Source of the DNA: a virus
Virus record (IMG/VR): IMGVR_UViG_3300045988_095739
Span: 1 to 40,162 of that record
Direction: 5' to 3' (one strand)
Length of the DNA: 40,162 bases
Shown here: in pieces, positions 123 to 20,135 of the stretch
Position numbering within the stretch: the first letter of the stretch is position 1
Layout of the letters: each line of letters starts with the position of its first letter
The notes under the pieces: model-generated
The model's database searches: none
Seen by the model: only the letters and a program-made list of their open reading frames with translations
Told to the model about the DNA's origin: nothing
Position numbers and translations under genes: made by a program

Positions 123-3100
123 TTACGTCGTAAACGTCGTACCATCCGCTCGTGTCACTGTAATATTCTGATTGTACGAACGCATCTTCTCATGAATCTT
201 AGTCAGTTCTTCTTCGCTCGGCGTGTAGTCACCGTCGACACCAAGTAGTTTATCAGCCGCTTCTATTTCTTCAGCAGTGATAACGCGAACATTCGGATCA
301 GACAGTTCCTTGCCGCTTTTATCTACAAACGCAATGTCGACGTCAACGATACCATTTTCGTCCGGTCTGCTCATGCCTTTAATTATATAATCCTGACCGC
401 GCCCAAGCAATATCTCTTTCTCATACGGATATTCAGAGCGCTCAAGCAATATGGCGTTTACATCAAGTCCATGATAACCTTGAGGCACTTTCACCCGCAA
501 CAAGTATTTATACGGGTCGCTTGCACCGAACGCAAAACTTCGTCCAACGATATTATCGCGACTCATCGATAAAAAGCCCTTGTCATTGAACGTATCACCA
601 ATGGCCAGTTGATTTTTCAAACCAAAACCGCGATAGAGTATAGTGTCATTACCGAGCGCAGACTTTGCAATCATCTTATCTAACCGTTTCACTGCCTCAG
701 TCGCATGCGAACTAATAGCAGTTCCGGTTCGGAGGTGTTCATTTATCTCCTTGTAGTAAATCCCCTGGTACATCAATAAGGCTTCAGTGTCGACTTTAGT
801 AACACCTTTCGCTAGTACGCCAGTATCAATCAGCTCCTGCTTGCGCGTTGTTTTGAGATGCTCTACCTTGTCAGCAAGCTCTTCGTTCTTCATGCCGGTG
901 ACTTCAGGTAGCTTATAATCGTCCGACATCTTACGTATCATCACCCATATACAACGGCAGTTGAAGTGCAATGGCGGCTGCCACTTCGTCGTTTTGCGCT
1001 CTTCGGGAGTGACAATACTTCCATCCAGCGCGCGGCAGGTCGAGCAGGTTTTGCCATCTAGTAATGCAGAGTATTCGTACAGGTCGCCATTCTTCTCAAT
1101 CGACGTAAACACGTCATTCCGGCCATTATTGATACCTCGCCCCACAATAGCGCTTGCTGTTGGCTTCAGTATGCTTGCCGCCCAGGCGAGCAATGCTAAT
1201 TCAAGCGCTTCTAGGAATATATCAGTCACAGTAGTTATTTCGTCCGCTAGGTGTGTTGGTTGCTTCAATCGCTGTTCGGCAATAATACTCCGTATATCAT
1301 CCTGCTGCTTCGTAATGACGAAGTCTGTCATTTCACGGATTGTAGCCATAGCTTCGCGGCTTGTAGCCGGTGCTGGCACGTTATGCTCGTCTGCCGCACC
1401 GTTCTTAGCGTAGTTGTAGGCGTTACGGATTGTTGAGTTAACGAGTTTAGCGTACTCAGTTGGCAATTCGACGACTATATCCTTTGCACTCTTTGTAGCC
1501 ATGTCGCCTGCTACTAGCTGCTTGAGGAAGTCCGTCATGATAGGTTCGGCGGCAGTTACGAAGTTATCCTCCAACGAATCCATCTTGGCATTGATATCTT
1601 CGAACTTTACGTTCTGTTCGGCAGGCGTGAGCGGTCTCCACCACTTCATTTCGGTGTCGCTTAGAAATTTACCGGCATTACTGCCAGAATCCTCCTTATC
1701 GTCGCCAGACTCTTTATCTCCGTAATTAATGCCCACAGAAGGCACGCGCATGCCGCCTATAGCCTCGCGCAGCGAGCGAACCCACTTCTGAACAGTCTCA
1801 GGGTCGTTTTTTACGTAGGCAAGCGTTACGTGCGGCGTGTATGTTCCAAAGGTGTTCACATGCGGCAATAGCCCGAGGCGTTCATGCGCTTCTGTCAGTC
1901 GACCATCATATACACGAGCGATAATCGGCACAGACTCCGCACCAGGTTCTACCGGGAACGAATCAATATCATCAAGCGCTACACTGTCGCAGCGCCACCC
2001 GCTCAAAACTGTATCGACTTCTGTTTTTATCGCGTTGCCATTCTGTAGTAAGCCGAACAACAATGATACATGAGGTTGTACCTCTGCTACCGCGCCCATC
2101 GTATGCCCGCCCGGCTTTGCTTGCACTAGGTCAGCTGCGCCATTCTCTACATGCCGTACGACATCAAACGGCTGCAGGTCTAACATAATACAGCCGAGTT
2201 TATCTTCGTCGACACCCAGGTTATCGTGTAGACCGGGAAAATCTCGCGCGCTGATTTCAGACAATTCCTTGCTGTCTTTCAATTTCTTTACATCCGCCTC
2301 ATCAATGTCAGCATTTTGCTCAGGTTTCTTTACATCTGCTTCACTATTCTCTTCGTTGTCAGCCGCAGCCTCCTCTTTCTTAGCTTCTTTCGCTTCGCGC
2401 TTCTCACGTTCCTTGCGAACCTGCTCTAGGTCGATATCAAGGCGGTTAGCAGCTTGCTCTTCAATACTCTTTATCATGTCGTCGCTAATGTGGTCTTTTT
2501 CTACAAGCTTCATGAATGCCTCCCACATTGTTTCGACAACATCGCTCGTGATATCGTCGTATCTAAACTCAGGGTAATGCGGCGTAGCGAAGTTCAAGTC
2601 GATTAAGTCGGCGATAATGAACTGATTGATATGCTCTTCGATTTTCGTCATGAATGCCTTAAGCGACATCATCATTGCATCTTTGAGGTTGTCGCTTAGC
2701 GCATACGAGCCGGTATTGCTTTTTCCTTGCGAGCTCATCAGCATAAACGTAGCCAGAAATGCACGAGCCATCTCAGAGTTCTGCCGTTCGATAGACTGGT
2801 GCGGGTCGCGACCATTCTGCGTAATCTCTTTCACGTCATAGCCATACGGTATTGAGGCAACAGAATTACGTTCGCCGAGTTTTGATAGTGCCCTGAGAAC
2901 CTTGCTTACGAGAGCGCCGCCCTTAACGCTCTCATCGCTTGCGAGTGCGTTGTCGCCTTTACGAATGAGCACTTTCGGTTTAATAGCGTCAGCCTGTAAT
3001 GCAATACTATCAAGGTATTCTAGCTTATGCTTCTTCTCATACGGACGCCGCAATGACCGCAGTGCACTTCGACCATACAAATAGTCGCGTGACTTGTTGT

Positions 3101-3677
3101 GCGTAAATAAGAATGTCTTATACGCCGGTAGAATCACATCAACCGTTCTCTCGCCATATCCCACGACTTGCCGTGCACCGCCATAGCCACCAGCCTCGTC
3201 GCGGATTAGCGTAATGCCAATACTATCGCGATGAGCAAGCTTCTTCAGTACATATTTACCGTTTTCGATTTTGTAGACTTTCTCCCACAACTGGAAACCA
3301 TCGACGATTGATAGCATAAGCTCGTCTTGAAATAGCGTGAATGGCGACTCCATACCGCCTTTGTATGGCGGTTCAAATAGGTTGGTACGGACAAAGTTCG
3401 CCTGCTCCTCGCTTGCATCATCCTTACTCGCGTCAATACGATAGGTAGCGGCGATAATCGGCAGCGTGAATACATTGAATAGCGCTTCGACTGTCGGGTC
3501 TCTGTCTACCATCTCGCGGTACTGCTTGATTGTCACCTTATCGCTGCGCAGCTCCTCATGTTCATAGCTACTGAATATAACTTCGCCGGCAACACCAACT
3601 TCACGCGACAATTCCTTGGTTGATTGTACGTTTTTATTCTTTATGCCAAATAACTTCATGTCTATGTTTCCAATCAA
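123..3677 (-). CDS. Portal protein fused to MuF-like head morphogenesis domain and C-terminal ADP-ribosyltransferase toxin domain (1184 aa); probable true start ATG at 3659
   Basis: The N-terminal ~420 aa is portal-like, consistent with the Mu-type head module. The central region carries the MuF/SPP1 gp7 signature LLDGKTCSTCRALDGS...PPLHFNCRCIWV. The C-terminal ~200 aa has the R-S-E ADP-ribosyltransferase motifs YRGFG, GFLSMS (STS-like) and EKEILL (ExE ARTT loop), resembling VIP2/iota-like toxins. The track ORF starts at TTG 3677; ATG at 3659 fits MKLFGIKNK. Confidence 0.8.
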   Translation of the reverse strand: MIGNIDMKLFGIKNKNVQSTKELSREVGVAGEVIFSSYEHEELRSDKVTIKQYREMVDRDPTVEALFNVFTLPIIAATYRIDASKDDASEEQANFVRTNLFEPPYKGGMESPFTLFQDELMLSIVDGFQLWEKVYKIENGKYVLKKLAHRDSIGITLIRDEAGGYGGARQVVGYGERTVDVILPAYKTFLFTHNKSRDYLYGRSALRSLRRPYEKKHKLEYLDSIALQADAIKPKVLIRKGDNALASDESVKGGALVSKVLRALSKLGERNSVASIPYGYDVKEITQNGRDPHQSIERQNSEMARAFLATFMLMSSQGKSNTGSYALSDNLKDAMMMSLKAFMTKIEEHINQFIIADLIDLNFATPHYPEFRYDDITSDVVETMWEAFMKLVEKDHISDDMIKSIEEQAANRLDIDLEQVRKEREKREAKEAKKEEAAADNEENSEADVKKPEQNADIDEADVKKLKDSKELSEISARDFPGLHDNLGVDEDKLGCIMLDLQPFDVVRHVENGAADLVQAKPGGHTMGAVAEVQPHVSLLFGLLQNGNAIKTEVDTVLSGWRCDSVALDDIDSFPVEPGAESVPIIARVYDGRLTEAHERLGLLPHVNTFGTYTPHVTLAYVKNDPETVQKWVRSLREAIGGMRVPSVGINYGDKESGDDKEDSGSNAGKFLSDTEMKWWRPLTPAEQNVKFEDINAKMDSLEDNFVTAAEPIMTDFLKQLVAGDMATKSAKDIVVELPTEYAKLVNSTIRNAYNYAKNGAADEHNVPAPATSREAMATIREMTDFVITKQQDDIRSIIAEQRLKQPTHLADEITTVTDIFLEALELALLAWAASILKPTASAIVGRGINNGRNDVFTSIEKNGDLYEYSALLDGKTCSTCRALDGSIVTPEERKTTKWQPPLHFNCRCIWVMIRKMSDDYKLPEVTGMKNEELADKVEHLKTTRKQELIDTGVLAKGVTKVDTEALLMYQGIYYKEINEHLRTGTAISSHATEAVKRLDKMIAKSALGNDTILYRGFGLKNQLAIGDTFNDKGFLSMSRDNIVGRSFAFGASDPYKYLLRVKVPQGYHGLDVNAILLERSEYPYEKEILLGRGQDYIIKGMSRPDENGIVDVDIAFVDKSGKELSDPNVRVITAEEIEAADKLLGVDGDYTPSEEELTKIHEKMRSYNQNITVTRADGTTFTT

Positions 3678-3717: not shown

Positions 3718-5259
3718 TTATAACACATAGTCATCGTACTCCTCGCCATCGTCGTTATCGTCAGAACCGATATCATCATACGAGCCGGCAAGTGCAATTT
3801 CTTCAGTAGAGGCGATTGCTCCATCGATGAGTAGCATGCGGATAGCATACACCATAGCGTCTACCATGTCGTCGTGGCTGCTATTCGGAAACTCCATCAG
3901 CTGGTCATAGAGGTCTTGCACGCCAGGCGCACCTTGTATGAAATGCACCCGACCACTTTCAAAGAACCGACTCACGGCAAGCAAACGGCGTGTTTTGTCT
4001 TTGTCTGGTTTTTGTGGGATAATAGGCAATCCTGCGAGCATGTCGCGGAATACAAGCTGCAAAGCACCAGCCTCAACGCCTACCGCGTTTGGATCGAATG
4101 TTTCGTAGAGCGTAGATATGTAATCGGCATTCTTCTGCGGCGATAAACGCTTATTGCTCACATGGTAGATGTACACGTCGCCTTGCACGCTTAGTTCGGC
4201 AATCACAATACCAGTCGGGTCGGCAGCCGAGCGTTCGCTTACCGCAGGGTCTACCGCCATTACTCGCGCCGATACGTATCGCTTATCGGGTCTTGCTTCC
4301 GCCCACTTTACCCAGCCTGGTTGGATAATCATGTCATCTTCATCAAGCGGTTTGTTCTGATACTCCTGAGCGAATGCGACCGAACCGATGTAGCCGTCGC
4401 ATTTCGGGTCGTCTCGCATGGCTTTCAGTCGCTCCAGACTCATATGCTCCGGCCAGAGAGCGTACTCGTTGCCATCATCATCCGTCATAATCGCCCGATA
4501 GAGCTTCGTGTTCCAGCTTGCGAACATCTCTCTATGCCTTAGTATGTTCTGCAGCAGTGAGTCGTGGTGTAGTACTGTACCGACCATAATAGCGCGTCCA
4601 TCGCGGCTTAGAGCCGGTAAGCACGCCTTAATTAGCCAATTCTTCAGCTTCTTGCGCTGTTCGGCCGTAGCAACACGTTCGTCATTCTCTAAATCGTCGA
4701 TAAGTAGCAGATCTGGCCGGTGCTCACGGTAGCGCAAGCCTCGTATCTTCATTCCAGCACCTTTAGCGACCCATTTAATGCCAGTAGCTGTCACAAATTC
4801 GCCATCACGCCACTCTTCGCTCATTAGATTGCCGTACAGCCATCGAACCTTGATGTTGTTCTCAAATTGGTCTTTCAGCGCATTCACGAACTCAATTGAT
4901 TGCGTCACAGTGTCTGAGATGATGACGCCGAAGTGGTGTTTCTCAGTCACTGTCGACCATAGCGCGTAAGTAAAGTCGATTGTCGTACTCTTAGCATGTC
5001 CGCGCGGTGCAGCGAATGCCAAATATTTATTTGACACGTCAGCGGCGGCAGATAGCATTTCACGGTGGAAGTTAGGTGTCTCTAGTGCGATATAATCATC
5101 GTTAATAAACCAGCCGAACAGATGGATGTTTGCGGGGCGTGCAAATACGGAACGTAGTATGCGGCGTAGTCTCGGCTTATTGCTTCGATATTTCTTACAT
5201 ACTCGCCGAATATCGTCCCGCGACAAATCATCCAAAGATGGCTTCGTCAAGCTCGGCAT
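3718..5259 (-). CDS. terL: Terminase large subunit
   Basis: 513 aa with Walker A AAPRGHAKST and Walker B LLLIDDLEND, then a nuclease-like C-terminus. It sits between TerS and the portal gene. Confidence 0.9.
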   Translation of the reverse strand: MPSLTKPSLDDLSRDDIRRVCKKYRSNKPRLRRILRSVFARPANIHLFGWFINDDYIALETPNFHREMLSAAADVSNKYLAFAAPRGHAKSTTIDFTYALWSTVTEKHHFGVIISDTVTQSIEFVNALKDQFENNIKVRWLYGNLMSEEWRDGEFVTATGIKWVAKGAGMKIRGLRYREHRPDLLLIDDLENDERVATAEQRKKLKNWLIKACLPALSRDGRAIMVGTVLHHDSLLQNILRHREMFASWNTKLYRAIMTDDDGNEYALWPEHMSLERLKAMRDDPKCDGYIGSVAFAQEYQNKPLDEDDMIIQPGWVKWAEARPDKRYVSARVMAVDPAVSERSAADPTGIVIAELSVQGDVYIYHVSNKRLSPQKNADYISTLYETFDPNAVGVEAGALQLVFRDMLAGLPIIPQKPDKDKTRRLLAVSRFFESGRVHFIQGAPGVQDLYDQLMEFPNSSHDDMVDAMVYAIRMLLIDGAIASTEEIALAGSYDDIGSDDNDDGEEYDDYVL

Positions 5260-5782
5260 CGGTTAGTTCCTTGTCTTCTTTGGCTTTCTTCAACTTCAGA
5301 TCACGCTCATCACGCCAGCCGCAAACATTCTTCATGGTGAATATTACAAAGCTCGCCGATGTTTTGCCGCTCAAACCAATTTCAACTAAAAACTCACGCT
5401 GTAATTCTTTCGCAATCTTATAGGATTCGGAAAACTCTTCATGCTTCTTTTTCCATTCATGCAAAGTATCTATGTTCACGCCTATCTTTCGTGCAAATCC
5501 TGCAAACCATGGCATCTTAGCTGGTAATCGCTCCAGCTTCACCTTTCCATCTACTTCAGCATCCTTAATAATCTCCATCGGATCAACGCTAAAGTAATCT
5601 ATAAGCTGCTGGCAATATTCCGGTCTATAGGCAGTTGGTCTACCTATTTTCTTTTTATTATGTTCAGGTTCTCCGTGTATAGCACCATTGTTTTTAATAG
5701 CAGTTCCCTGCTTCTGCTTCTGCTTCTGCTTCTGTAAGGATTTTCCTGATTTCTTTTTTGCTGCCATGGTATATTTCTCCAA
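5228..5782 (-). CDS. terS: Terminase small subunit (probable true start ATG at 5767, MAAKKK)
   Basis: Small basic protein directly upstream of and overlapping terL, with an N-terminal lysine/glutamine-rich DNA-binding-like region. RBS GGAGA lies 8 nt before ATG 5767; the track start at 5782 is TTG. Confidence 0.7.
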   Translation of the reverse strand: MEKYTMAAKKKSGKSLQKQKQKQKQGTAIKNNGAIHGEPEHNKKKIGRPTAYRPEYCQQLIDYFSVDPMEIIKDAEVDGKVKLERLPAKMPWFAGFARKIGVNIDTLHEWKKKHEEFSESYKIAKELQREFLVEIGLSGKTSASFVIFTMKNVCGWRDERDLKLKKAKEDKELTDAELDEAIFG

Positions 5783-6249: not shown

Positions 6250-6750
6250 TTAATCCTCCTTGGCTTTACTAAATTCCCTGTTCTTAAATAGTGCCGCTAA
6301 TCCGCTAACCTGCTTGAGTCGTAGCAATTCGTCTGCGTCCATGCCGATGTTCTTCATAATCCAGGCGTCACTCATACCACTATCGACCAATTCAGCCACG
6401 ATGTTAGTCATCAGTTCGATGGAATGGCTGCCTCTTGCTCGGTTATGCCGAATAGTCGATGCCATACGCTGTTCAATCGGTTTGTCTATCACGACGACGG
6501 GTAATTTGCCATTTTCGCGTTCAAAAATATCCTTGTGCGTTTTCATGATGGTGTAGCGATGATAGCCGTCGACGATTTCATAATTTTCGTTGTCAAGCTT
6601 ATAACAGACTATCGGCATTGTATAGCCGTCCTCCAGGATAGATTTATAGAGCAGTTTCATTTCCGGCGGGGCTACGGCGTTTGGATTGTAGGCGTTAGCA
6701 TGAATCTGTTCAATCGGCACGGCACGCACGGTATAAACTGGTGATTTCAT
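6250..6750 (-). CDS. ParB-like nuclease domain protein
   Basis: The IVDGYHR motif and surrounding pattern are typical of the ParB N-terminal (ParB/Srx) fold. It is translationally coupled to the upstream PAPS-reductase-like gene. Confidence 0.8.
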   Translation of the reverse strand: MKSPVYTVRAVPIEQIHANAYNPNAVAPPEMKLLYKSILEDGYTMPIVCYKLDNENYEIVDGYHRYTIMKTHKDIFERENGKLPVVVIDKPIEQRMASTIRHNRARGSHSIELMTNIVAELVDSGMSDAWIMKNIGMDADELLRLKQVSGLAALFKNREFSKAKED

Positions 6751-8039
6751 TATAGTATCTCCTTATATTTTTTGATTGCGTTCTTACGCTTTTCCATTTC
6801 GTATTTTGTTTGTGAAAAACCCATATATTTACAGAAGTGGTCGTTCTTCATAATACAAATACACATGCGTTTATAGGTTGGTATTTCGCGAAATTCTGAA
6901 ATATCAATATCGTCAAGGTAATCCATGCGTACCGGCAGCTTGTCGGTTTTGTAGTTTGTCTTGTCGCCAACGGCAATGTTGATGCCGCGCTCTTTAAGCT
7001 TATCGACTGTGTCGCTTCCCAGCACACCACCGCGTTCTTTCCAGAACTTTATACTCGTATCCAATTTAGCCTGATAGCGAGCACGTACATCTGTCGGCAA
7101 CGTGCTAAGCAGGAACTTGCAATAGCTTTTCCAAGTGTGCCCCTTAGGTAGCGTAATCGACTTCCATCCCATAGCGGTCGTGCCGCCGTATATTCCAGTG
7201 AAGTTGACGCCGTTGACTCGCGATACGAGCTTGCCCCATGTATGAGGCTCAATTACACGATAGAGCTTCAGACTATCCTGCGCCGCATCGTTGAATGGGC
7301 TCGCCACACGCATTGCGTCAAGCGGTACACCAGCCTGATGGTAGAGGTCATAAAGTTTGTTGTACGAATAGCCAAATTTAGCGTTGGCCGTCCAAATATC
7401 TTCAGTAATCCAGTCGTAAATCGGATAAAAATTAAATACATCACTTGCCATCTGCTTCGAATACTGCCGACCCATGAATGTACGGTAATTTCTGTCAGAA
7501 TGAATAGCGCGCCATCGATTGAGACTTTCCTGCGTGCGAATACCGACCAGGCATGCTGTATGTCTCGCATTGCGCTGTTTATGTAACCACACGCCAAATT
7601 TATCTTGAAAAGCATAGTCCCACATATTGCCGTTCCAGAAATCGAATTGATGATTATCGATATTTATACTGTCTTTCGGCAATTCTCGCGTCCAAATACC
7701 ACGCTCCGTGACATTCCACGGCTTCCAGTGGTCTTGAAACATCGAGGTCGAGCACTGTGCCTTAATCGGCATGCAAATATGGTAGAACCTCACTCCGGTC
7801 GGTAAACTATGTTTTACTTCCTCTACGTAGTCGGTTGTCATCTGATATTGCGCCTCGTAGTCAATGTGCATAACTGATACATCAGTTAACCGTTCAGTTT
7901 TCTCTGCGTAATCCAACGTCAGGTTTAGTAGTACGCCGCTATCCTTGCCTCCACTGAATGACACGCAAATATTGTCGAAGTGGTCGAATATAAATCGTAA
8001 GCGCTTTTGAGACACCTCATAAACATTCATAACGTCCAT
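6750..8039 (-). CDS. PAPS reductase-like (PP-loop ATP pyrophosphatase) family protein with C-terminal extension (DUF3440-like)
   Basis: The N-terminal SFSGGKDS P-loop is typical of phosphoadenosine phosphosulfate reductase / PP-loop enzymes. 429 aa. Paired with the ParB-like gene as in IbrA/IbrB-like and Dnd-like modules. Confidence 0.8.
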   Translation of the reverse strand: MDVMNVYEVSQKRLRFIFDHFDNICVSFSGGKDSGVLLNLTLDYAEKTERLTDVSVMHIDYEAQYQMTTDYVEEVKHSLPTGVRFYHICMPIKAQCSTSMFQDHWKPWNVTERGIWTRELPKDSINIDNHQFDFWNGNMWDYAFQDKFGVWLHKQRNARHTACLVGIRTQESLNRWRAIHSDRNYRTFMGRQYSKQMASDVFNFYPIYDWITEDIWTANAKFGYSYNKLYDLYHQAGVPLDAMRVASPFNDAAQDSLKLYRVIEPHTWGKLVSRVNGVNFTGIYGGTTAMGWKSITLPKGHTWKSYCKFLLSTLPTDVRARYQAKLDTSIKFWKERGGVLGSDTVDKLKERGINIAVGDKTNYKTDKLPVRMDYLDDIDISEFREIPTYKRMCICIMKNDHFCKYMGFSQTKYEMEKRKNAIKKYKEIL

Positions 8040-9258
8040 CCTTTATGCATTTAATGATATTATCAAGCGTTCTCTCTTTTTTGTCGAGACTCGAACGAAT
8101 AATACGTTCCAGCCCGACGTCGACGAAGAAGTCGTAAATTTCCACATTTTTCGTCTGTCCGGTGCGGTAGATTCGGTGCATTGCCTGAATTTTGTCTTTA
8201 TAGTCGAATGTTTGCGTTAGAAATGCCATGCGGTGACAGAACTGCAGGTTCAAGCCAAACGCACCCGTCCCGTATGTGCATATCAGGACCTGGTACCTAC
8301 CGGCTTCGAAGTCGGCTAGATTAGCTTTATGCCGGCCGGAATATTCAGCCGCATTCGGTAGCATTTCCAGTAGGCGGTCAACTTCATCCAAATATTTCAC
8401 GAATATTATTAACTGCTCATCGCCAACAATATCCATCAGCTTGCGGTATTTGTCGTCGCACACTGTATAGGTATGCTGTAGTTTTTGGGTAATCTCCAAG
8501 AAATTGATAAACAATCCTCGCAGACTTTCGTCTTTCGCTAATCGGTAATTATCATGTTCCTGTTCGTTCATCTGACACTCGATGTCCGTAGTGCACATTT
8601 CGACTGGAATATCCAGGTCGGCATCAAAGATATATGGGCGAATCATCTCAATCAGTGCCGCTTCGTTAGCCGGCTTACTCCAACGTCGCCACGCCCGATA
8701 ACCATCTTTGTAATATTCCATGAAATAGTTGGCAAACTGCGCTTCGGTCATGTTGAGGATGTTTGGGCTAATGAAATTTATCTGTGGCAACAGGTCAAGA
8801 ATACTACGCGTTGTTGGTGTTCCATTAAGTATTAAACGAAAGTCGAAGTGATCGTAGTACCCGATTAGTCGTTTTGTTCGTTTAGCGTCTAAATTCTTAA
8901 TCTTTATACTCTCATCGACAATACAGAAACTGCGCGCACTATCAGCTAGGTTCAACATATCCATAAACTTCTCATCGGACATTGATATACTTTCGACAGA
9001 GAATGTCCGCACGTTTGGCATGAAATCGCACCATTTCGCCATTTCGCTTCGGTAATTCTGATCGTTAAGCAGGCTCGCTGGTGCGATCCAAATGATAACA
9101 TCGTTCTCGCGGTTGATCCTCTGACTAATCCAGTCCATGGCAACCTTAGTTTTGCCAGTGCCCATTTTCATGAACAGTGCACCGGCACGCAATCGCGACA
9201 ACTTATCAACAGCGCTCGCTTGGATCAAATCTAACCTCATCGATTGGTTGTTGATCAT
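8017..9258 (-). CDS. SNF2-family helicase (DEAD-like N-lobe plus helicase C domain)
   Basis: Motif I MGTGKT, motif II IVDESIKIKN, motif III LNGTPTT, and motif VI HRIYRTGQTKNVEIY. Confidence 0.85.
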   Translation of the reverse strand: MINNQSMRLDLIQASAVDKLSRLRAGALFMKMGTGKTKVAMDWISQRINRENDVIIWIAPASLLNDQNYRSEMAKWCDFMPNVRTFSVESISMSDEKFMDMLNLADSARSFCIVDESIKIKNLDAKRTKRLIGYYDHFDFRLILNGTPTTRSILDLLPQINFISPNILNMTEAQFANYFMEYYKDGYRAWRRWSKPANEAALIEMIRPYIFDADLDIPVEMCTTDIECQMNEQEHDNYRLAKDESLRGLFINFLEITQKLQHTYTVCDDKYRKLMDIVGDEQLIIFVKYLDEVDRLLEMLPNAAEYSGRHKANLADFEAGRYQVLICTYGTGAFGLNLQFCHRMAFLTQTFDYKDKIQAMHRIYRTGQTKNVEIYDFFVDVGLERIIRSSLDKKERTLDNIIKCIKDGRYECL

Positions 9259-10083: not shown

Positions 10084-10554
10084 TTAAAACACCTCATCAT
10101 TGCTTAGATTCACTAATCGCAGTGACGGTAATCGTGCCTCAATGAAATCACGAGCTTCGTCGAACCCGCGGCAGACGATCGCCTCAATGCCGGCGTCGTT
10201 TAGCGTTTTAATCCACTGTTTTTGTTCCGGCGAGACTCGTCCGCCTTTTTTACGCTTTAGCTCGATGGCGACAAGACGAGAAGTGAATATAGACTTTTTA
10301 TCATCACTACCTTTAGCAGTCTTCCTTATGTCATATCGAACCCAGCTGGTTGGAATAGCCACAAAATAGTCTGGAACGCCCTTTGCTTGTCCCATGCGCT
10401 TCATTTTGGCAGTTCTAAGCATTGCGGTGCGTCCGCGACCTGATTCGTTTGCTACATGGAAGAATGGCAACTTCTTCAGGCGTAACCATTGCGCGAGCGC
10501 CTCAGACTCCATATCTTCAGTTGGGTTGTCATAGCTACTCAGATTTGGCATCAT
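10084..10554 (-). CDS. VRR-NUC domain nuclease (PD-(D/E)xK)
   Basis: VPDYFV...IELKRKKGGRVSPEQKQWI matches the VRR-NUC core. The track ORF extends to 10659, but the N-terminal 35 codons look non-protein-like and overlap the upstream gene. ATG ATG at 10554 is the likely start. Confidence 0.7.
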   Translation of the reverse strand: MMPNLSSYDNPTEDMESEALAQWLRLKKLPFFHVANESGRGRTAMLRTAKMKRMGQAKGVPDYFVAIPTSWVRYDIRKTAKGSDDKKSIFTSRLVAIELKRKKGGRVSPEQKQWIKTLNDAGIEAIVCRGFDEARDFIEARLPSLRLVNLSNDEVF

Positions 10555-10837
10555 CGCTACTTTCTTTATTATCGTTCTTTTCTGGCAGGTAAGCTCGTAG
10601 CATTTTTGCTGCGCCAACAACCACCGCCAGCTCGCTTTCAATCTCACAGTTAGCTTCATCTGCTATCTTTACCAGTTCCTCAATCACGCCACGTGGAATG
10701 GCGATAGTATCGCCACTCGCACTAGTATTCTTAGGTTTATTACTATGAAATAATGCAAGTTTGTTGATTGTTTCGCCATCAAGTTTTGCTGTTTCATTTT
10801 GATTGTCGATCTCGTCTACAAGTTCTTTGTCAATCAT
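10535..10837 (-). CDS. Hypothetical acidic protein (100 aa)
   Basis: Strong RBS AAAGGAGGAGATAATA before ATG. It sits immediately downstream of the palindromic operator-like site. Confidence 0.6.
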   Translation of the reverse strand: MIDKELVDEIDNQNETAKLDGETINKLALFHSNKPKNTSASGDTIAIPRGVIEELVKIADEANCEIESELAVVVGAAKMLRAYLPEKNDNKESSDDAKSE

Positions 10838-12769: not shown

Positions 12770-12955
12770 TTATTTTGATTGTTCTTTCGCGGTAAGCTTG
12801 CCGAGATGCGCCCAGGCACTCGTCGAATGGTTGAATAACTTGCTTTCTTTCAGCCATCCGCCGGCGAAAGCCTTGCGGCATACGTACCACTTACCGTCTT
12901 TGTTTTTCTTAATGGTGCGCACGGTCGTAAGCGACCTACGAAATACACTCTTCAT
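12770..12955 (-). CDS. Hypothetical small basic protein (61 aa)
   Basis: Open frame directly downstream of the 321-aa gene. Confidence 0.4.
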   Translation of the reverse strand: MKSVFRRSLTTVRTIKKNKDGKWYVCRKAFAGGWLKESKLFNHSTSAWAHLGKLTAKEQSK

Positions 12956-13901
12956 TGCTTTTTATCTCCAAGGGCTTTTTGCTTTTTACCAAGTAATGGT
13001 TGCCCGTCTCACTACTCAGATAGTTATCATTTACGATATCTAGGAACTTATTCGCATCTTTCGTGTCGAACAAAATGATATTGCCTTTGTCGTCTGTCAT
13101 TAACTCAATGGCCATATTGTCGGCGATATCGAGGACAGTCTCCTGGCTCGGCAGACTCTCAGTGTTAACTTCGAGCAGGCGCTTTAGTGTCGACTTGCTT
13201 TCGCGCGCCATTACGGCGAAATCATTAAACATATTCGGTAGTATCAAGCTATACCGATTACTAATTGCCTCGCCTATTTCATCAGACGTGCGAATATCCT
13301 GAATGTTATAGTCGAATGCTTTCGCGAACTTTGACTGGTCGAATATGAATATTTCGCCGCCAACTATCAGCATTTGATTATCCATCGGCATATTAACTGT
13401 CACGTCAGCTAAGTGAGACTCTGCATTGCCACCATCAAAATCCCACACATGACCCACAGAAATCGACGCAGACGGTGGTAAATACTTCGCGACGTAGAAC
13501 GATACGTTTTTATCGTCCGGATGCGTGTAGTGCGCTACAATTCCTTTCATGCGCTTGAATTCATGGTTGTGCGTCGAAAATTCAAAGATACCGGCACGAT
13601 CCTCTTCAATTTGCCGAACCAGATATCTCACGCGATCGACATCGCTGAGAGGCAGATACGGTAATTGCTTAGAGTCTCGTTTATCGTAATCAACCAGGTT
13701 GACGACATTCACGCCAATCGCCGCATCAGTCTGTATCTCGTTGATTATTCCATACAGGAACATCATCGGTAGTTCAATCTCTAATGCGGGCGATACGCGT
13801 AAACTATATAGCACAGCGTTCTTATTGAAGAGAAACAGTTCGCACTGCAGCCCTTTTTTCATGCTGTCCGCTTGGTTCGCCCATAAGAATATATCTGTCA
13901 T
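12936..13901 (-). CDS. Hypothetical protein (321 aa), accessory/possible defence or anti-defence
   Basis: Long ORF with no recognisable catalytic motif. It is translationally coupled to a 40-aa single-TM peptide gene upstream. Confidence 0.6.
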   Translation of the reverse strand: MTDIFLWANQADSMKKGLQCELFLFNKNAVLYSLRVSPALEIELPMMFLYGIINEIQTDAAIGVNVVNLVDYDKRDSKQLPYLPLSDVDRVRYLVRQIEEDRAGIFEFSTHNHEFKRMKGIVAHYTHPDDKNVSFYVAKYLPPSASISVGHVWDFDGGNAESHLADVTVNMPMDNQMLIVGGEIFIFDQSKFAKAFDYNIQDIRTSDEIGEAISNRYSLILPNMFNDFAVMARESKSTLKRLLEVNTESLPSQETVLDIADNMAIELMTDDKGNIILFDTKDANKFLDIVNDNYLSSETGNHYLVKSKKPLEIKSNEECIS

Positions 13902-14661: not shown

Positions 14662-14897
14662 CGTCTCTCCTTGTCATATTCATCGACTCGGTATACATGA
14701 TCCGGTAAACGTCCGTTCTGTTGCAGAAACCTCTCAATTTCCTCGTCATTTATCGTCACGATGGTTGTCGTTTCGACGGTAAATATCTTGTATCTACCGT
14801 TGTTGAAACGTTGACGCTTCTCAGTGTCGATAATGTATTTTCGCGAGCCTTTTTGGATTATCTTTTGGTCGTTCATATTCCTCCTTTCTCCTAGCAA
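14658..14897 (-). CDS. Hypothetical protein (79 aa)
   Basis: ORF overlapping the stop of the nuclease-FtsK gene by a few nt. Confidence 0.5.
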   Translation of the reverse strand: MLGERRNMNDQKIIQKGSRKYIIDTEKRQRFNNGRYKIFTVETTTIVTINDEEIERFLQQNGRLPDHVYRVDEYDKERR

Positions 14898-16927
14898 TAC
14901 AATCCCTGCAATCGCTCCAGATTCTTCGAGCGCGGATTTTGGTACAACATGTCGCCATAGCCGGTTAATTGCTCTGCGCCATCCTCGTCCAGAATGATTC
15001 GGCTATTCATCGAGTTCGTTACGCTGAACGCAATCTTTGTCGGGAAGTTGGCTTTAATTAAGCCAGTCACGACCTCACGGCTTGGACGCTGTGTTGCGAT
15101 AATTAAGTGAATACCAACAGCACGCGCTTTCTGGGCGAGCCGTACGATTGATTCTTCGCAGCTTGGCGGCATAGTATCTTCTATCGTCCGCTTCAATGCT
15201 TCCTTGGTGATTTTCACCGTCAAAGTGCCAGTTTTGCTGTCTCCCAGCAGTTCCGTCAGCTCCTGGTTGAATACCTTGATATCAAGCGTTTTAATGCTCG
15301 GCGACGTATCGGTCATGATGAGGTCGGCGAACTCGTCGATAATCGCAACGATACGCGGCATATCATCGCCTTTGTAATCGTCGATTTTACGAACACCTGC
15401 GTCGCGCAACTTTGCGTAACGCGCATTCATCGTGGCAACTAGATCGTCAAGAGCATACGCAGCTGTTTCAGCTTCAGTTACAACCGGCCGCAGTAGATGC
15501 TTGTCGCTTTCGTAACCGGCAAATTCTACCTGTTTTGGGTCGATAAGCAACAGTTTTAGCTTGTCGCTATCCAATTGCTTTGTGAGCACTTGCAGTATCA
15601 CGTTTAGCATGACCGATTTACCCGAGCCAGTTTGTCCGGCCACCAGCAAATGAGGCATCTCCGTAACGTCACCGTAGTGAACTTCGCCAAAGATATCTTC
15701 GCCGATCGGAATACTCATCGTGCCTGGTTTCAGGTGTCTTTCCTCCAGGTCGATTTTCCGTCGTTCTGGATTTGGCACTTCGATGCCAACCAGGTTCGTG
15801 CCAGGGATTGGCGCGATGATTCGTACAGACTCGGCTTTGAGTGCAATAGCAATGTCATCGTGTTTTTTCGCGATAGCATTCATTGCGACACCACGGTTTG
15901 GTCGCATTGTGTAGCGAATAACGGACGCCCCTTTGTATGTTTCGCCCATGATTCCGCCATAGCCAAACTCTGTGAACTTCCGCAGTATCAACTCTTCAGG
16001 AGTACCGCTATCTTCACCAACATCGACTGTCACATTGCGCGGTGCGAACTTCTCAACAGCGTTTACCTTGCGACGGATTTTCGTCGCATCAAAACCCTCT
16101 TCCATGTTCGAAACCAGTTGCATTGACTCAATACCGTTGATGTAATCGCTTGGGTTCGGGAAGAACTTTGCGTTGTCGTCGTTCACGTATGAGAACACGT
16201 TCGTGATGATTTTCTGCGCAACCGGCGCAAACTCCAGTAGCGATTGCCTGTCGTACTCAAAACCTCGCACCTGCGGCGAACCATCGCGGTTCTTGCTTTT
16301 CTTCACTTCTAGGAACTCGACAGATTCTACTTGCTTATCATAATCAGCTTCAGCGAGCACTAGGTAAATGTAGCCCTGTAGCAGATACTTGTAGTTCTCA
16401 ACATACTCAGGATCAAGCGGGTCGTTTGTTGGCGACGAGTAGGCGAACACTGTTTTGAAGTCTTTCACCTTGATCGTGTTATCCGAACTGCCTGCAGCGA
16501 TGATGTCAGATACCCCTACCATCGGTACGCCGTTTACTGCGTGCTCCATTCGCTTCTCAGTCGCCAGCACATCCATCGGACGCGCCTCTTCAAACCAAAC
16601 GTTTACTGTCGCAGTGTATTCCTCAATCATCTTTTCGCGACTGCCAGTCTTGCCGTAATCAATCTCGTAATCGCTCGTATCATTGATAGCCTCTAATCCA
16701 GCAGCAACTGCGTCGTTGATATTACCGCCATCTTCGCTGTAGTACGTTTCCATCGCCTTGTGGAACGCTGTGCCGACGACCATAGCCGGCGACTTCGCAT
16801 TATCGAACACTTTCGCGATATAACGCTTCTGAAACTCAACCTGGTTGCGTAGAAACGTAATGATTGCCGAGTAGCTTAAATGGTCAACCCTCGCCATGTC
16901 GCATCTCCTCGTCCGGATCGGCATCAA
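14891..16927 (-). CDS. Fusion of an N-terminal PD-(D/E)xK (RecB/Cas4/YqaJ-like) nuclease and a C-terminal FtsK/SpoIIIE-family ATPase (678 aa)
   Basis: N-terminal nuclease motifs GVSDIIAAG, IKVKDFKT and QGYIYL. C-terminal Walker A GQTGSGKS, Walker B IIDEFADL, and the FtsK-type IIATQRPS motif. Confidence 0.8.
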   Translation of the reverse strand: MMPIRTRRCDMARVDHLSYSAIITFLRNQVEFQKRYIAKVFDNAKSPAMVVGTAFHKAMETYYSEDGGNINDAVAAGLEAINDTSDYEIDYGKTGSREKMIEEYTATVNVWFEEARPMDVLATEKRMEHAVNGVPMVGVSDIIAAGSSDNTIKVKDFKTVFAYSSPTNDPLDPEYVENYKYLLQGYIYLVLAEADYDKQVESVEFLEVKKSKNRDGSPQVRGFEYDRQSLLEFAPVAQKIITNVFSYVNDDNAKFFPNPSDYINGIESMQLVSNMEEGFDATKIRRKVNAVEKFAPRNVTVDVGEDSGTPEELILRKFTEFGYGGIMGETYKGASVIRYTMRPNRGVAMNAIAKKHDDIAIALKAESVRIIAPIPGTNLVGIEVPNPERRKIDLEERHLKPGTMSIPIGEDIFGEVHYGDVTEMPHLLVAGQTGSGKSVMLNVILQVLTKQLDSDKLKLLLIDPKQVEFAGYESDKHLLRPVVTEAETAAYALDDLVATMNARYAKLRDAGVRKIDDYKGDDMPRIVAIIDEFADLIMTDTSPSIKTLDIKVFNQELTELLGDSKTGTLTVKITKEALKRTIEDTMPPSCEESIVRLAQKARAVGIHLIIATQRPSREVVTGLIKANFPTKIAFSVTNSMNSRIILDEDGAEQLTGYGDMLYQNPRSKNLERLQGLYC

Positions 16928-17600
16928 TCACCTTGTCGTTAGCGATTTCCTCTTCGATGTACAAGCCACTGATATCAAATCCTTGGCGGATTGCGTTTGC
17001 TTCAGCACACTTGGTCAACATCATGCGAGGTCTACTGCGCCACATGCTATTCAGATCTCCGTTTTTTTTTCGACGAGCAAACTCGTCGAAATATGCGGTA
17101 TAGCGCGTGATTTCTACCGGAGAGACCCCCGCCGAGATTGCACTGACTCCGCTACTGAAGATACCGAAGACCGGTACAGTCGCGCTGATGATTTGTGACG
17201 GATCGTCCTTACTGAACTCTAACTCAGCAGCACCAGTATGCGTATAGCGCGGTGTCGTCGATTTGCGTGCCATCTTTCGTAAGCCATGGATTGACACAAT
17301 CGGCGTTAATTCCTCGCGTTGCCGTTCCTTATTCCATACGTACGTTGCGTAGATTTCCTTTTTGAACGGGTTTAGTCCGTATTGATTAGAAATCGCTAGG
17401 AACAATTTCAAGTCTTCCATCGGTCGCGCTTCGCCAGTCTTCGTTAAGCCGAGCATGCTGCGGTGCAATGTCGCAACCATTTTTTCTTTGCTAATTTTCG
17501 TGTTTTCTGAAAACATACCAGACGCGAGCGGCACAACGTCTCGATACATCGTCAACTTTTTCTTTGCGACGGCCACTTTCGCGTCTTTCTCTGTTGTCAT
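16884..17600 (-). CDS. recT: RecT-family single-strand annealing protein
   Basis: KLFLAISNQYGLNPFKKEIYATYV is a RecT/Red-beta-like core. It lies upstream of a nuclease gene, as in RecET/YqaJK modules. Confidence 0.75.
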   Translation of the reverse strand: MTTEKDAKVAVAKKKLTMYRDVVPLASGMFSENTKISKEKMVATLHRSMLGLTKTGEARPMEDLKLFLAISNQYGLNPFKKEIYATYVWNKERQREELTPIVSIHGLRKMARKSTTPRYTHTGAAELEFSKDDPSQIISATVPVFGIFSSGVSAISAGVSPVEITRYTAYFDEFARRKKNGDLNSMWRSRPRMMLTKCAEANAIRQGFDISGLYIEEEIANDKVIDADPDEEMRHGEG

Positions 17601-18917: not shown

Positions 18918-18993
18918 TGGAGCCACGACCGAGGTTTGAACTCGGGACCTACGCCTTACCATGGCGTCGCTCTACCAGCTGAGCTATCGCGGC
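18918..18993 (-). tRNA. tRNA-Thr (anticodon GGT), 76 nt with encoded CCA
   Basis: Reverse complement folds as a cloverleaf: acceptor GCCGCGA/TCGTGGC, D-arm GCTCagctggtaGAGC, anticodon stem ACGCC/GGCGT with loop ATGGTAA, T-arm CCGAGttcaaacCTCGG, then T-CCA. Confidence 0.85.
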
Positions 18994-19274: not shown

Positions 19275-20135
19275 TTATACGCCCGTTGGTGTTTTGAATT
19301 TGTCGTACATCTCTACCAGTCTGCAATCATCTAGCCCGTGCAGATATTTTTCGGTAGTAGCCATGCTTGAATGTCTCATTAACCTCTGTGCTACGTCTAT
19401 CGGTGCTCTATTGACTTGCAGCTCTGTACCAAACGAATGACGGAGCGAGTGCGGATAAAAGCCGTCCAGTCCCGCCTTGTCAAAAGCTCTTTTCATTCGA
19501 TACCTCAGCTCGTCTACGCTGTACGGTCTACCGTCGTTGTATTTGGGCGACGGCCATAGGTAGTCGTTGATTTTTTGCGAGTCAATCCAGCAATCGAGTT
19601 TATCGCGCGTTTCTTGCGACATAAACAGCCGTCCAGCCTTACGACCTTTTCCGATAATGTTCATTTCTCGATCGCTAACATTGCTTAGTCGCAGATTTCG
19701 GAGCTCACTGATTCGCAGGCCAGAATCAAAAGCTAACGATATCAACAGCCACGAAAGCTCATCGGCGTAGTTCTTTGCACGGCCTATCTCCTTGCGAGTA
19801 AAAAACTTGCGACGTGGAGGATCCTCTTCTAGCCGATAGACTCGATTCAGGTTGATAGGGACACTATACCCCTCCTCTTTGAGCCATCGACAAAGACTGA
19901 TGACATGGTTTACTCTGGTATTTACAGTTCTAGCTGCAACCGTCCCAGAGCACAACAGCGACTTCTGCCAGGACTTGAACACTTCGCTAGTGAACTCCCG
20001 CATGTCTTCGATTGCGACCTGTCTAGCAAACTGATTTAATACCGCCCGCTTACTAGACAACGTTTGCCTTGTCATGTTTCGGTTGTATTTGCAGAAATCC
20101 AAATAAGCTTCTATCTGCGAATGAATTGTTTCCAT
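19275..20135 (-). CDS. int: Tyrosine recombinase / phage integrase (XerC/D-like)
   Basis: N-terminal SAM-like domain. Catalytic R...HSLRHSFGT...RLMRHSSMATTEKYLH with the Tyr nucleophile. Confidence 0.9.
   Translation of the reverse strand: METIHSQIEAYLDFCKYNRNMTRQTLSSKRAVLNQFARQVAIEDMREFTSEVFKSWQKSLLCSGTVAARTVNTRVNHVISLCRWLKEEGYSVPINLNRVYRLEEDPPRRKFFTRKEIGRAKNYADELSWLLISLAFDSGLRISELRNLRLSNVSDREMNIIGKGRKAGRLFMSQETRDKLDCWIDSQKINDYLWPSPKYNDGRPYSVDELRYRMKRAFDKAGLDGFYPHSLRHSFGTELQVNRAPIDVAQRLMRHSSMATTEKYLHGLDDCRLVEMYDKFKTPTGV

Follow-up and report, generated by a model that had tools for sequence, protein, structure and literature searches.

We report a phage gene that joins, in a single polypeptide, a RecB-type PD-(D/E)xK nuclease to the alpha and beta domains of an FtsK/SpoIIIE-type DNA motor. 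It directly follows a gene of the RecT/Bet annealing-protein family, with which it is predicted to be co-transcribed. The gene lies in a DNA stretch of 40,162 nucleotides (IMG/VR virus record IMGVR_UViG_3300045988_095739; the whole stretch is hereafter called the window), which is a complete temperate siphophage genome. The RecT-linked nuclease-FtsK fusion is conserved, abundant in uncultured phages and previously uncharacterised. We propose, with belief and doubt evenly balanced, that it is the motor-equipped exonuclease half of a two-component phage recombinase and would carry out ATP-driven end resection for RecT. Functional statements throughout draw on sequence, predicted structure and gene context. 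The original prediction, made from the letters of the window, had named a nuclease fused to an FtsK motor directly after recT, and Pfam, PHROG, AlphaFold2 (AF2) and Foldseek all bear this out.

Domain architecture of the fusion protein

The longest open reading frame (ORF) of the fusion gene, at 14891..16927 on the minus strand, starts with TTG and encodes 678 residues, the length originally predicted. The true start is likely an ATG at 16897, which yields 668 residues, since a GAGGAG Shine-Dalgarno sequence lies 7 nt upstream of it and the closest homologue also has 668 residues. This ATG overlaps the end of recT, whose stop codon occupies 16884-16886, by 14 nt, and the overlap suggests that the two genes are translationally coupled. 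The upstream protein matches Pfam RecT (E = 5.5e-16; 59.1 bits against a cut-off of 24), PHROG RecT-like/Bet-like families (2.7e-21 and 1.3e-20) and, at 77.5 bits barely over the cut-off of 76.95, NCBIfam bet_lambda.

The fusion protein comprises a nuclease (residues 1-245), a disordered linker of about 50 residues and an FtsK alpha-plus-beta motor (residues 300-668). The AF2 model of the full-length monomer has a mean predicted local distance difference test score (pLDDT) of 83 and shows two well-folded modules with a low-confidence joint at residues 246-299. The predicted template modelling score (pTM) is 0.63 for the full length versus 0.82 for the nuclease alone, and the packing of the domains is predicted without confidence.

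In the nuclease half, Pfam PDDEXK_1 spans residues 16-244 (E = 7e-14; 52.8 bits against a cut-off of 22), and the PHROG matches are to the "exonuclease" families 69 and 1218. The nuclease motifs are G42xxxH46, E114, D131, D146-x-K148, Q174xxxY178 and E197-x-K199. The motifs quoted in the original prediction (GxxD, DFKT and QxxxY in the nuclease; GQTGSGKS, IIDEFADL and ATQRPS in the motor) all occur at their translated positions: GVSD with D131 at 16505-16516, DFK(T) at 16454-16462, QGYIY at 16364-16378, GQTGSGKS at 15614-15637, IIDEFADL at 15320-15343 and ATQRPS at 15080-15097. Conservation was counted over 71 distinct full-length copies from viral contigs and prophages. G42, H46, E114, D131, D146, K148, Q174 and K199 are invariant among them, and Y178 is kept in 43.

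The nuclease domain of the window protein contains no cysteine, and the family alignments have no conserved cysteine column. An iron-sulphur (Fe-S) cluster of the Cas4/AddB kind is therefore ruled out. Of the earlier designation "RecB/Cas4-type", the RecB part stands and the Cas4 part falls for want of cysteines. Cas4 identity was rejected: the four Fe-S cysteines are missing and Cas4 ranks only 31st among the structural neighbours. Modelled alone, the nuclease also reached a pLDDT of 83, and Foldseek placed the putative exonuclease 3l0a closest (1.9e-7), followed by the nuclease domains of AddB and AdnA. MGME1, RecE, Dna2, Exo5 and RecB/RecC were further neighbours, with Cas4 distant. A sequence-profile search of the PDB with the nuclease domain gave only insignificant matches (MGME1 and a Cas4-like protein, E ~0.8-0.9).

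Within the linker, pLDDT falls below 50 at residues 249-254 and 283-295. The stretch corresponding to residues 256-300 is 43-50 residues long in 66 of the 71 members and 67 residues long in the other five. The linker opens with P247-N248 (PNPSD, residues 247-251; 16145-16159, minus strand), and both P247 and N248 are invariant family-wide. PNPSD sits in a segment that AF2 cannot place and is shared with stand-alone nucleases; judged by its conservation, it could be a docking motif.

The motor half was originally described as a complete motor in the C-terminal 300 residues. Complete it is, but it takes up about 370 residues, consisting of alpha plus beta without gamma. Pfam FtsK_SpoIIIE matches at 5.1e-42 (144 bits against a cut-off of 24), the PHROG match is "FtsK/SpoIIIE-like protein", and the C-terminal half aligns to Pseudomonas aeruginosa FtsK (2iuu) with E = 3e-63, well outside what chance would give. 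In Foldseek, structures of FtsK motors, some of them bound to DNA, superpose on the motor half (E ~1e-31; target template modelling (TM) score ~0.75). No Pfam FtsK_gamma match to the gamma winged-helix domain was found, and the protein stops directly after beta. An N-terminal membrane anchor is likewise absent, the N-terminus being occupied by the nuclease domain.

The motor carries Walker A (G421-S428), Walker B (D521-E522), an arginine finger (R592) and a sensor glutamine (Q603). An arginine finger before strand 4 and a sensor-1 glutamine define the HerA/FtsK clade (PMC10853773). G421, G424, G426, K427, S428, D521, E522, R592, Q603, G612 and K615 are invariant. In P. aeruginosa FtsK, DNA is contacted by the basic pore-loop residues R632, K643, K657 and R661 (PMC7321959). 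By alignment to 2iuu, three of these correspond to R604 (kept in 68/71), K615 (71/71) and R633 (R or K in 59/71), and the equivalent of K657 is S629, which is not conserved in the family. After Walker B, an insertion of two helices (residues 540-552 and 561-575; pLDDT 58-79) is present that cellular FtsK does not have. Its length varies from 7 to 81 residues across the family, and thus it is not essential.

Both enzyme halves look active, judged by the invariance of the catalytic residues of nuclease and motor in all 71 sequences. The original prediction had named a nuclease lacking its catalytic residues, or a degenerate pseudo-ATPase, as findings that would speak against it. Neither was found: the nuclease residues, Walker A, Walker B, the arginine finger and the sensor are all invariant.

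A conserved family linked to RecT

More than 120 full-length homologues sharing all three Pfam domains are present in the protein database, mostly on contigs of 33-43 kb. A scan of viral contigs returned 75 loci with a full-length match at 29-98% identity. Upstream DNA is available for 73 loci, and in at least 71 of these a RecT-family gene immediately precedes the fusion on the same strand: 41 are short Bet-like forms as in the window, 27 are canonical RecT and 3 are weak RecT matches. No conserved neighbour other than the RecT family was seen in the loci compared.

Two copies are prophages, on contigs of 819,220 bp (L001) and 1,009,213 bp (L163), the sole long host contigs with such a prophage. 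Such prophage-bearing contigs of 0.82 and 1.01 Mb suggest a small host genome, compatible with hosts such as Saccharibacteria or other bacteria of the candidate phyla radiation (CPR).

The fusion has no full-length match among 50,697 deposited phages and is absent from 72,556 plasmids. The viral structure library likewise gave no full-length match (best query TM-score 0.46). Scanning the genome collection with window-specific peptides found nothing, and generic FtsK patterns derived from the alignment found only cellular FtsK genes there, matching residues ~205-668. Our full-text literature search found no description of the fusion, and an earlier passing mention in older papers is possible. 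Motor-nuclease resection machines, pairs of annealing protein and exonuclease, and defence fusions of nuclease and FtsK are already known. The original judgement that the gene is not a standard arrangement holds for characterised systems, in that no deposited phage or plasmid has it and we found no paper on it. It needs tempering on two counts, as the fusion forms a large conserved family in uncultured phages and a nuclease-FtsK fusion is already known in DndH (PMC10853773).

Stand-alone relatives of the two halves

Searched against 1.84 billion representative proteins, the nuclease profile gave 366 matches at E <= 1e-10. Among the best 150 of these, 64 carry an FtsK module and 69 are stand-alone nucleases of 230-345 residues. 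In a rough neighbour-joining tree, the fused forms group together beside a stand-alone clade of 48 members, and a few stand-alone or truncated nucleases nest among the fused forms. Beyond this nesting, nothing supports the idea that the gene is an artefact, that is, an assembly error or frameshift merging two genes, or a fusion with a decaying FtsK half. We regard it as having next to no chance of being correct: the ORF runs unbroken through the fusion in 71 distinct sequences, which stem from independent samples and assemblers, the linker is constrained in length, and catalytic residues are invariant in both halves. Both the artefact and the pseudo-ATPase were rejected on the strength of these 71 intact copies.

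At two loci on contigs of about 35 kb (L171 and L172), the stand-alone nuclease directly follows an ERF annealing protein, with a single-strand-binding protein (SSB) nearby. By its gene order, we read this arrangement as a classical recombinase pair. Several other stand-alone relatives sat on short contigs, and only the contexts of these two loci were informative.

On the motor side, deposited phages contain only stand-alone FtsK-like proteins, including those of mycobacteriophages and Bacillus phages, and these lie outside recombination modules. In Mycobacterium phage Omega (L165, 3463-6293), the FtsK-like gp203 lies three genes from the Ku-like DNA-end-binding gp206, which, judged by this position, would make gp203 a second phage FtsK motor in a DNA-end setting. 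The viral structure library also contains "Siphoviridae sp. ctHip2", in which a separate FtsK translocase (567 residues) and PD-(D/E)xK nuclease (315 residues), A0A8S5RUZ7 and A0A8S5RVC0, both match the AF2 model. This pair could be a split version of the fusion.

A putative motor-driven resection ring

In the mechanism we propose, six subunits would assemble around duplex DNA at a double-strand end as a ring of the FtsK type, the loading orientation perhaps being set by the nucleases binding the DNA end. ATP hydrolysis would then drive the DNA in at the beta face and out at the alpha face. This is the direction known from FtsK, whose alpha-beta part hexamerises on duplex DNA without gamma and passes it from the beta ring on to the alpha ring (PMC7321959). 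Since the nuclease is joined to the N-terminus of the alpha domain, this direction of movement would place the nucleases at the face where the DNA leaves. Tethered there, the six nucleases would be fed the end continuously and would degrade the 5' strand. The remaining 3' single strand would be coated by RecT, which would anneal it in phage recombination, recombination-dependent replication or concatemer formation. The ring would thereby supply both a topological grip, the role of the toroid in lambda Exo and RecE, and active translocation.

Several observations support a role as part of a recombinase. The fusion, at 29-98% identity, is preceded by RecT at no fewer than 71 of the 73 loci. The nuclease subfamily includes a stand-alone member paired with ERF and falls into "exonuclease" PHROGs. 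Moreover, the phage has its own terminase and portal, and no second exonuclease candidate was seen in it, a VRR-NUC protein being the sole other nuclease match among the scanned ORFs. Resection in particular is supported by the structural neighbours AddB, AdnA, RecE, MGME1, Dna2 and Exo5, all of which are end-resection nucleases, and the constrained length of the linker supports the proposed geometry. Given the descent of the nuclease and how consistently RecT accompanies the fusion, we favour the "processive resection machine" of the original prediction over its other suggestion, a device acting on incoming or host DNA.

Other observations weigh against a resection machine. The model shows a flexible tether and an undocked nuclease, with which strand separation and cutting of the 5' strand only would be hard to explain. 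No strand-separating element is evident in the fusion, and HerA-NurA requires a fixed narrow channel and a pin to separate strands. Without gamma, there would be no known means of orienting the loading of the ring. One locus of the 73 (L150) has no detectable RecT and another (L139) has a sub-threshold match only, and some stand-alone nuclease relatives have no recognisable annealing protein nearby. Finally, the nuclease-FtsK fusions DndH and SspH serve defence, not recombination (PMC10853773).

The same disordered linker and the lack of confident packing (pTM 0.63 against 0.82) would also fit a protein that does two jobs on one chain. The nuclease would then be a motor-independent exonuclease for RecT, and the FtsK module would act otherwise on the phage genome, by stripping proteins from it, by disentangling or segregating its replicated or concatemeric copies, or as a passive ring that slides along the DNA and keeps the enzyme on it. 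The stand-alone FtsK-like translocases of mycobacteriophages and Bacillus phages, which lie outside recombination modules, point the same way. However, the fusion and its linker length are kept over very wide divergence, which argues for mechanical coupling, the gamma domain needed for the segregation and Xer roles of FtsK (PMC7321959) is absent, and invariant ATPase catalytic residues argue against a passive clamp. We consider this division of labour unlikely.

Alternatively, by analogy with DndH and SspH, the protein could be a weapon whose motor reels in host or competing foreign DNA for its nuclease to shred. Such a weapon might help the phage to take over the host, scavenge nucleotides, exclude superinfecting phages or counter defences. 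In its favour, some DndH proteins end in a restriction-type nuclease followed by FtsK alpha and beta (PMC10853773), the SspH model of PADLOC matches the motor at 1.3e-46, and the gene lies near the prophage end with a KwaB-like gene about 1 kb away. However, the SspH match is limited to motor residues 320-552, and no PADLOC model matches the nuclease half. The near-universal partner is RecT rather than a sensor, methylase or specificity subunit, the nuclease subfamily contains a classical ERF-exonuclease pair, and the phages are temperate, with the gene in an early operon like lambda exo-bet. A weapon therefore seems to us quite unlikely.

Coupling an ATPase to a nuclease is also the logic of the large terminase, and membrane-containing viruses use ATPases of the FtsK/HerA class to package their DNA (PMC5512222, PMC7824862), which would speak for a packaging or ejection ATPase-nuclease that replaces terminase. 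The fusion gene, however, sits in the early region beside recT, far from the structural genes, and we give this idea almost no credence. A packaging motor was rejected, as the phage has a portal and canonical terminase subunits, both small and large, of its own.

Returning to the resection machine, we suggest, with slightly more doubt than belief, that a lineage of phages has turned the cellular FtsK alpha-beta pump into a single-polypeptide, ATP-driven resection ring that hands 3' tails to RecT. If so, processive resection would have evolved independently in a third design, next to the superfamily 1 (SF1) helicase-nucleases and HerA-NurA, and a bona fide FtsK motor would for the first time have a role in recombination. 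FtsK has been called the fastest known DNA translocase (PMC7321959). Phage pairs of annealing protein and exonuclease underlie recombineering, and their exonucleases have so far been simple and ATP-independent; a resection ring would mean that phages also build motor-driven machines for this task. It would further provide a natural single-chain model for coupling a double-stranded DNA (dsDNA) pump to a nuclease, explain what at least one branch of the enigmatic FtsK-like phage proteins does, and possibly offer a compact two-gene recombineering module for small-genome hosts with few repair enzymes. If the hosts are indeed small-genome bacteria, RecT and the fusion could serve as a portable tool for recombination in organisms that are difficult to engineer.

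Comparison with known systems

The overall arrangement is reminiscent of the two-component recombinases lambda Exo/Bet, Rac RecE/RecT and ERF with a RecB-like exonuclease. There, too, the early operon of a temperate phage carries an annealing gene and, right behind it, a gene for a PD-(D/E)xK exonuclease, and RecE is a structural neighbour of the fusion nuclease. Phage recombinase exonucleases gain their processivity as trimeric or tetrameric toroids. Whereas these exonucleases are ATP-independent, the nuclease of the fusion is RecB-like and covalently joined to a predicted ATP-driven hexameric pump.

In the HerA-NurA system of archaea and Deinococcus, a ring of the HerA/FtsK class pushes the broken duplex into a nuclease at its exit face, so that 3' tails arise (PMC9960219). 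This layout is also the one predicted for the fusion, which is an analogue rather than a member of this system. HerA carries a HAS barrel, whereas the fusion has true FtsK alpha and beta domains, ~35-45% identical to cellular FtsK, and HerA models match the fusion motor only at E 1e-4 to 1e-6 over short stretches. Furthermore, NurA is a separate dimer, unlike the fused and flexibly tethered PD-(D/E)xK nuclease, and HerA-NurA operates in a Mre11-Rad50-RecA setting rather than in a phage with RecT.

RecBCD, AddAB, AdnAB and Dna2 likewise resect ends with a RecB-family nuclease coupled to an ATP motor. That motor is an SF1 helicase, which moves along single strands and unwinds DNA, whereas the motor of the fusion is a ring-shaped dsDNA translocase with no known unwinding activity. 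The fusion also differs from them in having neither an Fe-S cluster nor Chi-type regulation.

DndH and SspH resemble the fusion in that a restriction-fold nuclease precedes an FtsK alpha domain and an FtsK ATPase captured from cellular FtsK (PMC10853773). DndH is a protein of ~1700 residues and eight domains that defends the host together with DndF and DndG, and its core comprises a SWI2/SNF2 C-domain, target-recognition domains, an inactive methylase, a restriction nuclease and HerA/FtsK (PMC10853773). The phage protein, in contrast, consists of only a RecB-type nuclease, a linker and a motor in 668 residues, and its partner is RecT. RecT was the sole family conserved in the compared neighbourhoods, for which no search aimed specifically at DndF- or DndG-like neighbours was made. 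The fusion extends the theme of "FtsK capture" from host defence to the phage side.

The stand-alone FtsK/SpoIIIE-like proteins of phages (PHROG 1358; Omega gp203; Bacillus phages) share the same gamma-less alpha-plus-beta arrangement and are 33-45% identical to the fusion over ~350 residues. They differ from it in lacking both a nuclease domain and a RecT neighbour. PHROG files the phage FtsK-like proteins under "moron, auxiliary metabolic gene and host takeover", and we found no tested function for them. Cellular FtsK and SpoIIIE, with which the fusion shares alpha and beta, all ATPase motifs and, by alignment, most pore-loop residues, have in addition a membrane domain, a long linker and gamma, none of which is present in the fusion. 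Since gamma is absent, the fusion cannot read the FtsK-orienting polar sequences (KOPS) or activate XerD by the known route.

The phage genome and neighbouring genes

The features of the window are collected in Table 1. Protease-like head genes and tail genes are also present. The window DNA gave no megablast match, and its large terminase subunit is at most ~30% identical to that of any deposited phage.

Table 1. Positions of the fusion gene, its domains and other features in the window
Feature	Position	Strand	Details
Nuclease-FtsK fusion gene	14891..16897	-	668 residues + stop, from likely ATG
RecB-type PD-(D/E)xK nuclease domain	16163..16897	-	residues 1-245; Pfam PDDEXK_1
Linker	16001..16162	-	residues 246-299; low-confidence or disordered
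FtsK alpha domain	15740..16000	-	residues 300-386; Pfam FtsK_alpha residues 310-386, 4.6e-18
FtsK beta (RecA-like ATPase) domain	14894..15739	-	residues 387-668; protein ends here
Two-helix insertion after Walker B	15161..15313	-	residues 529-579, ~50 residues; gap relative to 2iuu
RecT/Redbeta-family single-strand annealing protein	16884..17600	-	238 residues; closest to lambda Bet
KwaB-like (DUF4868) protein	12936-13901	-	Pfam KwaB, 31.5 bits against cut-off 26.3
VRR-NUC nuclease	10084-10659	-	191 residues; early region
SNF2-type helicase	8017-9258	-	413 residues; early region
Small terminase subunit	5228-5782		canonical
Large terminase subunit	3718-5259		canonical
Portal fusion	123-3677	-	1184 residues
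Tape-measure protein	30361-32916
tRNA-Thr(GGT)	18918..18993	-	full-length; adjoins integrase
Tyrosine integrase	19275..20135	-	Pfam Phage_integrase, 2.5e-25

In both L001 (tRNA at 7647-7722) and a further prophage relative, L083 (3919-3994), the prophage abuts a host tRNA-Thr(GGT) that adjoins a tRNA-Tyr/tRNA-Thr(TGT) cluster. Because these relatives are inserted at the host tRNA-Thr(GGT), the corresponding tRNA region of the window is probably the phage attachment site, attP. The first operon leftward from it encodes an SLT_3 lysozyme-like protein, a small membrane-like protein, the RecT/Bet protein and the fusion. Lambda exo-bet holds the corresponding position beside int-xis.

The KwaB-like gene lies about 1 kb downstream of the fusion gene. 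Its NCBIfam KwaB score of 33 bits is far under the 200-bit cut-off, and no KwaA was seen. KwaB is a host anti-phage protein.

Some further features were noted in passing. Prophage L163, whose fusion is 67% identical to that of the window, encodes GroES and GroEL among its early genes (15034-16907). Just upstream of the terminase genes, the window carries an IbrA/IbrB-like pair (6250-8039, minus strand), namely a PAPS_reduct and DUF3440 protein of 429 residues followed by a ParB_N protein of 166 residues. The 1184-residue portal fusion combines a portal (residues 41-468) with a head-morphogenesis/minor-head domain (residues ~850-1100) and shows weak RNA-ligase-like and ADP-ribosyltransferase-like matches. 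The portal protein of prophage L001 is 934 residues long and likewise has a weak 2',5'-RNA-ligase match.

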